Shown here: positions 7,344 through 11,064 of the stretch, in pieces | How the letters are laid out: every line of letters starts with the position of its first letter | Numbering within the stretch: the stretch's first letter is position 1 | From: Cirrosporium novae-zelandiae | Taxonomy: Eukaryota | Reading direction: 5' to 3' | Assembly: GCA_026023565.1 (NCBI GenBank) | Contig: JAPETS010000069.1 | Coordinates: 62,001 to 90,586, forward strand | DNA length: 28,586 bases | Made by a program: the position numbers and the translations under genes | Notes under the pieces: model-generated | What the model was told of the DNA's origin: nothing | Seen by the model: the letters and a program-made list of their open reading frames with translations, nothing else | The model's database searches: none

Positions 7344-8309
7344 ATGCATACCGCATCTTACATCTTCCTCGCCGGCTTAGCTGCCTTGGCCACCGCGGAA
7401 CACGGATCCACGCACAACCACCAGCTCCAGGAACGATCTAGCTTCCCCATCCCCTCCGCCGTTGGCACCATCACGCTGTCAGAGCCCAAGGTCGTCACAG
7501 GGGAATTCGACTGCAAATTGTACCGTTATGACCGCGGCACCACATGCGGCGGGCAATCAGAGGGCGGTGCAAGCGACGCCGTGTTCCAAGTCAAGGAAGG
7601 TGGTACACTGAAGAACTGCATTATTGGTGCCAAACAGTCGGAGGGTGTCCATTGCTTGGGTTCCTGCACCATCAAGAATGTTTGGTGGGAAAATGTTTGC
7701 GAAGGTAAATAAATTCCTTGAAACTTTTTTATTTATGTTTTTCGAAAGCGATCAAACCCCTAACAACTGCTGCTTTATTTAACCAGATGCCCTCACCATC
7801 AAGCAAACAAAGGGAACATCCTACATCATCGGCGGTGGAGCCAAAAGTGCCTCCGACAAAGTGATCCAACACAACGGTGGCGGCACGGTCTCTATCTCCG
7901 ACTTCTACGTCACCGACTTCGGCAAGCTATACCGATCTTGCGGTAACTGCAAAAAGCAGTATGAACGACACGTTATTATCAAGGGTGTCAAGGCCTCGAG
8001 CGGAAAAACCCTTGTTGGTATCAATCCAAACTATGGTATGTTTTTTTTCTTTTTCTTTTCTTTTCGCAAAACATCCGGGAAAAAAAAGGCACCAACACCA
8101 GATGATGACGAAAAAAAAAGAAGAATTTAACTAATGAGAACTTAATTATAGGTGATACCGCAACCATCGACTCAGCCACTTGCGCTAGTAGCGTCAAGAC
8201 CATCTGCGCTGAATACAAGGGCACCAGCAACAACAGCGAGGAGCCTAAGAAGACATCCACTGGCGTTAGCAAGTATTGCAAGTATTCCTCGCCTTTGAAA
8301 TCGTGTTAG
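7344..8309 (+). CDS. Secreted pectate lyase, polysaccharide lyase family 3, 255 aa
   Basis: Exons 7344-7704, 7787-8035, 8152-8309 (768 nt). Signal peptide [20 protein letters not shown]3 motifs [54 protein letters not shown]. Confidence 0.95.
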
Positions 8310-8739
8310 GGCTCTTAACGCAATGTGATTTGCATGTTGATGGTTGATTTCGAGCCGAGGTGGGGAGGGGGAGGGAAGGAAGGAAGGACTTTAGCTAGTA
8401 CAAGCGTTTCCAAATCTAGGGAATTTTGCTACTACTTATATTAAGCTTTTTTTTTCTCTTCTTCGTAAATAGCTTTTGTGTCGTCGTAATTTGCTTTTGT
8501 TTTTTATTTATTTTTTCTTGTATACATGGTTCGTAGATGAGAAATGAAAAAGACAAAACATGTCATTAAACGATATGATGGGTCATAAACTAAATAAAAC
8601 TAGCCAAAATGTCATTTGTCCAACCAATTTGAAACCAAATATTGACTGAAATAGGGGGGATGGAGGGGGGGGGCTTGGGATTATAAATTCAAGGCATCTA
8701 CTATTACTACCCCCCGCTCCCTTCCCCATTACAACTAGG

Positions 8740-9664
8740 ATGAATTTTCCCATGGCGTTGAGTTACCATTCCATTATTGAGTTCGTGAAGGCCTCCCCTG
8801 AATCTTCTCTTGATTGGACTCTTTCCTAGAGTGAATAATGATTCTTTAATACATGCAATGGAATGATGCTTCATCTAAAGGTTCTTCGAGTGGTTGCTGT
8901 TAGACGGACTGCTTGTCACGTTTATTCCCCTCTGAATATCGCGCCCAATCCAGACTAGGGAGTTGTAACATATAACTTAGAAGTGTATGTTCTATATATC
9001 TTTCATGTTTGAAGGTAGGCAAGCAGCTAACGGCGTTAGGGAGCGTAGAAAGCTACGCAATGACAAGTCCTTCTTGAGGACAAAAAGAGGAGGAGTGACC
9101 GTGAAAAATGATGGAGGCCTCTCTATCTTACTCGTTAAGAGAGTAAGTACACAGGTTCGAAACAGATATGGAATGGGTTCTCCGCTGTTATATTTAGAGG
9201 TGAGCATTTCATCCAACAGAAAAGAGCAACGAATTCACACTCAACTAGGCCAACCGAAGACATGCCGGTAATATCCATCGTCCCGGGGGGAGGGGGGGAA
9301 GAAAGATATTCTTCAAGTATTCTAGCTAAGGAAGTAGCTGGACTCTTAGGGCAGGCGATGGAAGCATGCCACCTAACTAGGCGGATGGAGTGATAGTGAT
9401 CAGGAGGCGTTCGTCCTCACCATACATGGAACTCATCTCGGGTTAACAGCTACGCGTTTTACCGGAAAATATTTTTCGCATGTGAACAGTGCGGATATAC
9501 CAGAAACTGAGAGATTATGGGTAAGGCGTTCTAACCCGTATGACTTGAAGTTGCAGTCAGGGAGGGCCGGCGCTTTGCAGTTGTGCATTGGTATCTACGA
9601 GTACCTTCGAAGTGGCGATTCAGAGATAGGCTTATTACAGAATGCTTTAAAACGATATCTCTAA
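8740..9664 (+). pseudogene. Degenerate gene for an uncharacterised fungal protein with PD-(D/E)xK nuclease-like motifs (copy A)
   Basis: TATAAA 8682; ATG 8740 (MNFPMALSYHSIIEFVKASPES, stop after 29 codons); fragments W..HLKVLRVV and SRLFPSEY; introns 8985-9039 and 9200-9248; VKNDGGL...PLLYLE|ANRR...ILAKEVAGLLGQA...DQEAFVLTIHGTHL...RSNPYDLK...IGIYEYLRSG. Frameshifts at the G-tract 9285-9298 and near 9376. The fold assignment is pattern-based inference. Confidence 0.7.
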
Positions 9665-9668
9665 TCGA

Positions 9669-10692
9669 TTATTTAACACTTTCAACGCTAAGAAATTTAC
9701 AAAGTCCAATGAGAACTTTTAGAGCCTCCCTTCGGCGATCACATTCCTGGAGATCATAGGATTCTGAGCAGGAGAGCCGGAGGTTTTCGCTCAAGGGTCT
9801 GCCTTCGCAGAGTTCTTCTATGTAGATACGAGGTATGACTGCCACGTTGAACTGTAAGATGGTTCCACTCATGCGCAGCACGAACGCGGTATAACTCTTC
9901 AGAGTCGGATCCTGGTCGTACGCTAGGAATCCCTGCAATAGGATCTGTGAAACTTCGTCCCCTATGATATGATCCTCGTAATATTCGGATCATCTTGGTC
10001 TTTCACGGCCTATTATACTGTATCAGCCTTTGTATGAGGTTAGAGAGAATGTGAACAAACGGAAAATGTAGCAAATGGAAGAAACATCCCCCCATGCGTA
10101 GCATTAGAGCTAGAAATTGCCCCCCCCACATCTTAAGGCACCGTAGGAGCGTATTGTGAATGGAATATTTAAAATCCAAGTTCTGCGCATGTTCTCTATA
10201 AGCTCCCATACCCAGGAAAGAAGTAGACGATCACAAACTAACAATTTTCTTGCTGCTTCAACGCTGCTAAGAAGGACTTCGAAGAGATAGGATATGATAT
10301 ATTTGGAAGAATCGGAATGGCTATTGGTCCTGGCCGCTTCATTGAGTCGGAGGAAAACATGATGGAAGATATTTCGGTAATAAATAGAGCGCTTGATTTA
10401 AAAATCCTCCAAATCGTCTTTTGTTGGTTTGGTAAACTTGGTAGCAAGTTCTTCAAATTCTGCTTGTGAGTCAGTGTGCATTGCATGAAGCGAAATAGAG
10501 GAACTGAAGGAACACACCTTCATCCTCGTCGCTGGGCAAATACCGGGCTTCGATAATGGCCTCGGCGGGGAGATTGTCTTGCTGAATTACTTTCAGTGTA
10601 CGAAAATGTTCCGAGGTCCATTTCTTTGGCGGTTGAAGGAGAAATGAAGGAATCGGTTGTCGAGAGTCTGATGGGAGTGATAAAGGATTCAT
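9669..10692 (-). pseudogene. Degenerate distant paralog of the adjacent gene (copy B), lacking the putative catalytic residues
   Basis: ATG 10692 (MNPLSLPSD..PKKWTSEHFRTLKVIQ..YLPSDEDE); intron 10517-10460; in-frame TAA 10400-10398; donor at 10211 with an unclear acceptor; probable frameshift at G8 (10127-10120); intron 10060-~10010; another lesion near 9990; intact C-terminus IIGDEVSQILLQG..AFVLRMSGTIL..SESYDL..RREALKVLIGL. Confidence 0.7.
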
Positions 10693-11064
10693 GCTAGAAG
10701 GATGTGAATATTAGATTGGAATGGATGATAAACTCTATCATTAATACTGATATTTATTAGAGGGAAGTAATAAAAAAAGATAAACGGGTACACTTACCCT
10801 GGGCTAGTCATGGCCCTAGATTTGAGCCTCATAGAACCTAGTCGTAGTCAAAGAAAAAGGAAGAGGAAAAAGGCAACTGGAGTTGATACTTATTTTGTTC
10901 TATTTACTATTATTATTAAAATAAATAGAATAATAATATAGTGAGAGGTCTTGGATTATATAACCCTGCCCAGCTCACCTCTCTAGTGCATAAAATGCAT
11001 AACTCCCTACCTCCGCTTTTTTTTCACCTTTCCCGTTCCCATCTACACTCGAATCCTCCCACCA

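Follow-up and report, generated by a model that had tools for sequence, protein, structure and literature searches.

The 28,586-nucleotide (nt) window analysed here, positions 62,001 to 90,586 of the forward strand of contig JAPETS010000069.1 (assembly GCA_026023565.1), comes from Cirrosporium novae-zelandiae, a member of a genus assigned to the class Xylobotryomycetes. It carries two adjacent and convergent genes, copy A (8740–9664, + strand; ATG at 8740, stop codon TAA at 9662–9664) and copy B (10692–9669, − strand; ATG at 10692, stop codon at 9671–9669), the stop codons of which are separated by 4 nt. An earlier note, made from the sequence alone, had described two convergent, intron-bearing, decayed genes with a nuclease-like fold, one catalytic-looking and one dead-looking, and had proposed that they form a poison/antidote module. 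Reading the frames places two such genes at just these positions, and all of the peptide strings quoted in the note are found in reading frames of the window. Both copies are pseudogenes, with at least seven lesions in A and three in B, and because A and B are both dead the locus is a fossil with no working system; nothing functions here. Lesions were called by reading all frames against homologs (tblastn, three-frame reading, and enumeration of GT..AG pairs), resulting in the following features of the two copies.

8740–9664, + strand: copy A, an A-type (D...ExK-bearing) pseudogene, delimited by tblastn with homologs P0003, P0004, and P0005 and by three-frame reading
8818–8859, + strand: A lesion 1, an in-frame segment of 42 nt with three stops, between Trp 8815–8817 and GMMLHLKVLRVV
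8881–8939, + strand: A lesions 2 and 3, two frameshifts relative to LRVVLLDGLPMPRLFPSEF of P0005
8940–9094, + strand: A lesion 4, a central loss of ~200 nt, deduced from ~155 nt standing in place of ~120 residues in homologs
9095–9199, + strand: A core exon, VTVKNDGG...PLLYLE, with Asp at 9110–9112 and Glu at 9197–9199
9200–9248, + strand: A intron of 49 nt, phase 0, GTGAGC...CTCAAC...TAG, after PLLYLE
9249–9290, + strand: A exon past the intron, ANRRHAGNIHRPGG
9252–9254, + strand: A lesion 5, AAC, encoding Asn instead of the catalytic Lys of E-x-K-R-R-H
9283–9376, + strand: A lesions 6 and 7, a frameshift in a G6-A-G7 run before ERYSSSILAKEVAGLLGQAMEACH (9298–9372) and another before LGGWSDSDQEAFV
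9377–9664, + strand: last open piece of A, LGGWSDSDQEAFVLTIHGTHL...RYL, ending at the stop at 9662–9664
9669–10692, − strand: copy B, a B-type (ExK-less) pseudogene
10463–10517, − strand: B intron 1 of 55 nt, phase 1, after SDEDE
10398–10400, − strand: B lesion 1, an in-frame TAA (DLEDF*IKRS vs. DLADFRSKSS in homolog P0002)
10194–10238, − strand: probable B intron 2 of 45 nt, phase 0, found by enumeration of GT..AG pairs
10120–10127, − strand: B lesion 2, a frameshift between ALRCGG and AISSSNATHGGMFLPFATFS caused by an additional G, the run here being 8 G long (C on the + strand)
10010–10060, − strand: B intron 3 of 51 nt, phase 0, after LPFATFS
9957–9973, − strand: B lesion 3, a 17-nt insert between ITR and EVSQILLQG that has no counterpart in P0002

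The C-terminal exon of copy A is 67–77% identical to P0003, P0004, and P0005, and the position of its intron is kept as an insert in the gene model of P0004. Homologs read W-x4-HL.ALRV unbroken where the window has the 8818–8859 segment, which we regard as a lesion and not an intron because it has no GT–AG borders. Copy B reads through the corresponding KKWTSEHFRTLKV intron-free, so the intron that had been placed at an equivalent Trp of both genes is absent from each. Between 8881 and 8939 the coding potential moves through all three frames, with VLRVV in the frame of 8881, LLDGLLV in that of 8882, and RLFPSEY in that of 8880; residues 471–479 of P0005 map to 8913–8939, and the NDGG block begins at 9095 (tblastn). 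The Asp and Glu codons of the core exon lie exactly where the earlier note had put them. Its reading of E-A-N as an ExK-like motif holds for the Glu, which is in place, and not for the Lys, which is mutated (intact homologs have LEAKRR or FESKRR). The second frameshift in 9283–9376 precedes LGGWSD, at approximately 9373–9377 by three-frame reading.

Copy B is related to P0002 (Elaphomyces granulatus V8E54_008464, 321 amino acids [aa]), with 63% identity in the C-terminal exon and 45% over 289 columns by tblastn. The position of intron 1 is kept as an insert in the gene model of P0013, and removal of the probable intron 2 restores LL-NMRRTWILN-IPF against LL-MHITVNSR-IPF of P0002. The exon downstream of intron 3 reads AVKDQDDPNITR, the P0002 counterpart being VVTDHRNSSITR. 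An alternative 86-nt intron, which would keep the frame by bypassing lesion 3, was rejected in favor of the 51-nt intron because the exon past the latter aligns with P0002. The 17-nt insert of lesion 3 holds a tandem ATCAT-ATCAT and shifts the frame into a TAG.

G-rich runs recur in and around the pair, namely GGGGGGATGGAGGGGGGGGG upstream of A (8655–8680), G6-A-G7 inside A (9283–9297), and G6 and G8 within 10082–10127 (− strand) of B. Two of these runs coincide with frameshifts.

Copies A and B are ancient paralogs. Their C-terminal exons are 31% identical over 67 aa (BLASTP E 5e-7 in a single comparison), and profiles of eight A-type and 20 B-type sequences align over 255 columns, nearly their full length (hhalign probability 99.9, E 4e-32). 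No DNA similarity was found between the two copies, the best blastn match being 11 nt long with an E value of 0.40, in agreement with the earlier note, and the profile alignment together with a tree of 40 rows bears out its view that the duplication is ancient. The phase-0 introns that it reported after PLLYLE in A and LPFATFS in B, each followed by Ala, are present (9200–9248 and 10060–10010); they are homologous in place and phase and therefore support common descent.

A word-indexed search with the last exon of B returned two proteins, P0001 and P0002, and the last exon of A returned three, P0003, P0004, and P0005. Searching exhaustively with P0002 (phmmer) retrieved 119 cluster representatives at E ≤ 0.001 (51 of them at ≤ 1e-10 and five at ≤ 1e-30), and a profile search identified the A-type members FQN50_002796 of Emmonsiellopsis sp. 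PD_5 (P0072, 364 aa) and L228DRAFT_243284 of Xylona heveae (P0126, 358 aa), the B-type member AWENTII_009980 of Aspergillus wentii (P0010), and the Onygenales gene models P0043, P0125, and P0129. The family comprises stand-alone proteins of 270–364 aa from relatives within the Pezizomycotina, with a conserved N-terminal region, W-T-x-x-H-L-x-x-L-x-V. All 132 collected proteins (132/132) matched hidden Markov models (HMMs) built from the eight A-type and 20 B-type sequences, 12 scoring better as A-type and 120 as B-type; both counts are biased by the B-type query of the large search and by the presence of some scored sequences in the HMMs.

The relationships within the family were inferred from a maximum-likelihood tree of 40 rows, in which proteins were cut to their C-terminal 125–135 residues and joined by the translations of the two window exons. 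Thirteen A-type rows, including window A, form one branch (100/99) with short internal branches, and window A falls among P0003, P0004, P0005, and P0126. The B-type rows form several deep subclades, with window B paired with P0008 (99/84) near P0002 and P0006.

By sequence the family is unnamed, having no Pfam, NCBIfam, or PADLOC model: Pfam gave no match for the family itself in 43 members at E ≤ 1, nor any for the window fragments, PADLOC returned no matches, and NCBIfam gave one chance-level match (E 0.22). A profile search of the PDB with a family alignment produced no matches at E ≤ 10, and no description of the family was found in the open-access literature searched. Scans of metagenome contigs gave 598 pattern matches for the A-type alignment and 61 for P0004, none of which was confirmed as a locus. 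In the ESM Atlas only unnamed look-alike clusters were retrieved, with P0126 leading to Mollusca (0.96) and P0002 to Basidiomycota (0.97); for P0126 the structural template modeling (TM) scores to clusters from Mollusca, Basidiomycota, and Mucoromycota were 0.60–0.65. Named clusters (HSDR_N, PDDEXK_12, and mL37/PDCD9) scored below 0.8 and are leads only.

Two database entries containing family members have unusual architectures. P0005 (Aspergillus ibericus, 774 aa), named as a pepsin-like aspartic protease (Pfam Asp at 54–406), ends in a full A-type protein of 350 residues and is probably two neighboring genes merged by annotation. P0108 (217 aa) combines the first 43 positions of NACHT_N, a domain of NWD-type NOD-like receptors (NLRs; E 3.6e-7, residues 65–107), with the C-terminal half of a B-type protein. 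This fusion occurs in one of the 43 members scanned; it may be a chimeric model, or else it hints that B-type genes can reside beside NLR genes.

Structures were predicted with AlphaFold2 for P0126 as the A-type representative (43-row alignment; predicted local distance difference test 85.7, predicted TM score 0.87) and for P0002 as the B-type representative (48 rows; 87.7 and 0.82). The models were compared with known structures by VIA structural search against representatives and by Foldseek. The top four VIA matches were the same, in the same order, for both types.

3j7y chain 5: A-type Z 14.2 (229 residues aligned, root-mean-square deviation 4.0), B-type Z 13.6
7a5f chain s3: A-type Z 14.0, B-type Z 13.5
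BpuSI (3s1s): A-type Z 8.5, B-type Z 9.2
DrdV (7lo5): A-type Z 8.0, B-type Z 8.5

The first two chains we take to be the human mitoribosomal proteins mL37 (3j7y chain 5) and mL65 (7a5f chain s3). Next in rank, at Z 4–7, were SgrAI, NgoMIV, BbvCI, Bse634I, Cfr10I, NucC, HsdR, Can2, Hjc, and others. Foldseek likewise placed mitoribosome chains of human and mouse at the top (E 2e-5, TM ~0.4), followed by weak matches to Cas4 SSO0001, lambda exonuclease, MGME1, and RecB. With dozens of restriction-fold nucleases matched at Z 4–9 and Foldseek in agreement, the predicted models support the restriction-endonuclease-like (PD-(D/E)xK) fold that the earlier note had suggested for both types, in the B-type over the whole length.

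The split between a catalytic-looking A and a dead-looking B is real at the family level, based on motif counts from a 43-row alignment. Of the four A-type rows covering the Asp of NDGG, three have it, as do P0004, P0005, and window A. The Glu of ExK is found in all three A-type rows that are complete and correctly modelled, four short models starting at that exon border, while the same column is acidic in 0 of 34 B-type rows. The Lys of ExK occurs in eight of eight A-type and in five B-type rows, and K-R-R-H in 7/8 A-type rows and in no B-type row. In the P0126 model, strand 202–207 comes directly after D200, strand 223–228 contains E226-A-K228, and helix 247–268 (QEVAELL...) follows. This canonical arrangement of a catalytic Asp before beta-2 and ExK in beta-3 is present in intact A-type proteins and is missing from window A and from the B-type.

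The adjacency of A and B reported by the earlier note recurs in a second lineage, the Onygenales. The gene models P0043 (Onygenales sp. PD_10) and P0125 (Emmonsiellopsis sp. PD_33) open with a complete B-type protein (residues 1 to ~249) and then run into an A-type remnant, which keeps an N-terminal DVKHLGALRVLAFDD and the C-terminal 94 residues (71% identical to P0072) without the NDGG...ExK core. The B part of P0043 reads intact; that of P0125 is close to intact but differs from P0043 in its mid-part. In P0129 (Onygenales sp. PD_12) this A remnant stands alone. The same deletion of the central A-type core is thus seen in the models of three strains (P0043, P0125, and P0129), a fourth related strain having an intact gene (P0072). 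Functional A therefore differs in presence and absence among related Onygenales fungi.

Among known systems, the animal mitoribosomal pair mL37/mL65 (mS30) of the PDCD9 family is the best match for both types, with 229–240 residues aligned including the N-terminal part, at Z 13.5–14.2, ~5 Z units above the next matches, and has the same overall three-dimensional architecture as the fungal models. D...ExK is kept in the fungal A-type and presumably lost in mL37 and mL65. In contrast to these ribosomal proteins, the fungal family shows no sign of mitochondrial or ribosomal association, and PDCD9 (PF07147) has no sequence match in the 43 fungal members at E ≤ 1; the mL37/PDCD9 Atlas cluster is among the nearest named clusters of the family (0.76, a lead only). 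A passage of one review presents mL65 and mL37 as two paralogous restriction-fold proteins acting as a pair, "a pseudo-dimer ... repurposed endonucleases" (PMC8998825).

The nuclease domains of type IIG, IIS, and IIP restriction enzymes and of relatives in the match lists (BpuSI, DrdV, SgrAI, NgoMIV, BbvCI, BspD6I, HsdR, and NucC) have the same core fold at Z 4–9, and the restriction enzymes share with the fungal A-type the canonical position of the Asp ahead of one strand and of ExK within the strand that follows. The entry titles of BbvCI and BspD6I describe each as a heterodimer with related subunits. Restriction enzymes belong to prokaryotic defense and carry DNA-recognition or methylase modules, whereas the fungal proteins stand alone and have no detectable sequence relation to them.

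A fungal PD-(D/E)XK domain that kills is known from Spok of Podospora; in the sections of the Spok study dealing with this domain, the catalytic Lys mutant K240A abolishes killing and the best HHpred match is V. vulnificus HsdR (PMC6660238). That HsdR structure, 3h1t, is also in the lists of both fungal models (Z 4.6 and 6.0). Spok is one long protein with a killer nuclease and a resistance kinase, whereas no kinase domain was found in 43 members of the present family, the proteins are ~300 aa in length, and a separate gene encodes the putative partner, a dead paralog. The fungal family PDDEXK_12 (PF20516) had no sequence-profile match and reached an Atlas feature score of only 0.76, under the bar of the tool. 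In XPF-ERCC1 and Mus81-Eme1, eukaryotic nuclease heterodimers of this superfamily, a catalytic subunit is paired with a paralog that has lost its catalytic residues. Unlike the window pair, the genes of these complexes are not known to be linked in genomes, and ERCC4-type domains gave no sequence match or top-ranking structural match in the searches with the A-type and B-type models.

The genes neighboring the pair have long intact frames (902 and 773 aa) and clean Pfam matches (GH92, SDR, Iso_dh, pectate lyase, Aa_trans, FYVE/Rabenosyn, SPO71-like PH, S26 peptidase, and DUF7082), and the decay is therefore local to A and B. Repeat-induced point mutation was rejected as its cause, since TA/AT (0.93 in A and 0.69 in B) and (CA+TG)/(AC+GT) (1.12 and 1.32, respectively) are near the values of the intact neighbors. 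The public gene model P0001 (372 aa, window 9669–13032, − strand), which is 100% identical to the last exon of B, is a chimera that joins the 3' exons of the Aa_trans transporter to the first and last exons of B and omits the broken middle.

Elsewhere in the window, a run of 16 G followed by a run of 70 G occupies 28360–28463 at the 3' end, and GC skew is strong in the terminal kilobases (0.38 in the first, 0.40 in the last). These G runs and the skew appear to be an artefact of sequencing or of the contig end and not a biological feature. At 2502–2515, in intergenic or intron sequence between the GH92 and SDR genes, lie 14 consecutive C.

We interpret the window pair as the relics of linked ancient paralogs of a restriction-fold family, the intact pair probably being a two-subunit nuclease composed of an active A and an inactive B. 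We hold this interpretation with slightly better than even confidence, mostly carried by its descriptive part. Intact A-type proteins, which keep the catalytic signature, would most likely be Mg2+-dependent nucleases, and B-type proteins most likely non-catalytic partners because ExK has been lost. Together, A and B may constitute a single enzyme in which an active protomer is joined by an inactive one, by analogy with the heterodimeric restriction enzymes BbvCI and BspD6I in the match lists and with the mL37/mL65 pseudo-dimer, on which this arrangement is modelled.

A number of observations weigh against the interpretation. The nuclease activity of the A-type and the cooperation of A with B are putative, both being predicted from sequence, models, and analogy. 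The earlier note had expected D...ExK to be confined to A-type proteins, which is so for the ExK Glu and not for the Asp: the NDGG column has Asp in 10 of 32 and Glu in three of 32 B-type rows, and one A-type protein, P0100, has neither residue (Tyr for Asp and Val for Glu). Because the Asp is partly kept, it is solely the missing ExK that marks B-type proteins as dead. Linkage of A and B is based on two lineages, because the neighborhoods in Xylona, Aspergillus, and Elaphomyces were out of reach, and the convergent arrangement expected by the note is seen in the window and gives way to a tandem one (same strand) in Onygenales. Window B and the Onygenales B fall in separate B subclades, the latter together with P0020 (100/100). 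The A copies of the window and of Onygenales also fall in two A subclades, a pattern that fits co-divergence of a linked pair without proving it. Finally, two of the frameshifts could be sequence errors because they fall in G homopolymers, unlike the remaining lesions.

The main rival explanation, which we consider unlikely, is that A and B are uncoupled members of a diverse, fast-evolving, and dispensable family, possibly derived from a mobile element, and are neighbors through an old local duplication, each acting (or having acted) on its own. The family is indeed large and diverse, a single B-type query having yielded 119 representatives (E ≤ 0.001) and the B-type having many deep subclades. 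Expansions of its unnamed look-alike clusters are seen in Basidiomycota, Mucoromycota, and Mollusca, as is often the case with selfish or mobile families. It is also generally known that homodimers are common among restriction-fold enzymes. The differences in orientation and B subclade between the two linked cases also favor independence, but an A-type gene lies beside a B-type gene in both lineages where neighbors can be inferred, the stop codons in the window are merely 4 nt apart, and B and A of Onygenales are near enough for gene predictors to fuse them.

A second rival is the selfish toxin/antidote module, now extinct at this locus, in which the nuclease A would act as the toxin and the inactive B as its decoy or antidote, in meiotic drive or allorecognition; we rate this as improbable. 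The tight linkage of A and B in two lineages (the window; P0043 and P0125) is in its favor, and the killing by a PD-(D/E)XK domain in the Spok sections cited above (PMC6660238) provides a precedent. Decay is also frequent, with both copies dead in the window and three Onygenales A remnants lacking the core in strains or models where B, if present, is intact or nearly so, P0072 being an intact A. A toxin would be expected to be lost before its antidote, and A was lost first in Onygenales and has seven lesions in the window compared with three in B; the same pattern of decay, however, is expected of any dispensable gene pair. The short branches of the A-type clade indicate greater conservation, which suits a housekeeping-like enzyme equally, and toxicity, rescue, drive, and polymorphism are purely conjectural. 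The earlier note had further proposed a mobile 2-kb cassette, but no direct repeats flank the pair in 7800–11600, the inverted repeats there number only two and are short and weak, no mobile-element genes are among the genes beside the pair, and the repeat search of this region gave no other sign of such a cassette. An ordinary two-subunit nuclease accounts for the facts no less well than a toxin with its antidote.

It is very improbable that the organism carries two intact genes and that the stops and frameshifts arose as errors in a metagenome-derived assembly, an explanation consistent with the metagenome-assembled genome label of the best identical record, two frameshifts in G runs, and the 70-nt poly-G at the window end, but at odds with at least eight lesions outside homopolymers (a TAA, the 17-nt insert, the 42-nt segment, the ~200-nt loss, the Lys-to-Asn change, and three frameshifts), with neighboring genes that read through cleanly, and with the need for P0001 to omit the whole middle of B.

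Returning to the two-subunit nuclease, a broader and doubtful extension of it is that the linked active/inactive pair of fungi is the closest structural kin of mL37/mL65, and that the ribosomal pair arose from an old eukaryotic two-subunit nuclease. The fungal module would then be dispensable, repeatedly decaying, and possibly selfish, with the dead paralog serving as partner or antidote.

For this genome the practical message is that the locus is a fossil and that the P0001 gene model is chimeric. If the pairing of A and B is true, it would define an unannotated family of eukaryotic nucleases with a built-in division of labor between active and inactive members, which has been repeatedly lost. 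Such a family would be a candidate for a new fungal genome-conflict system, or for free-living kin of the mitoribosomal "repurposed endonucleases."

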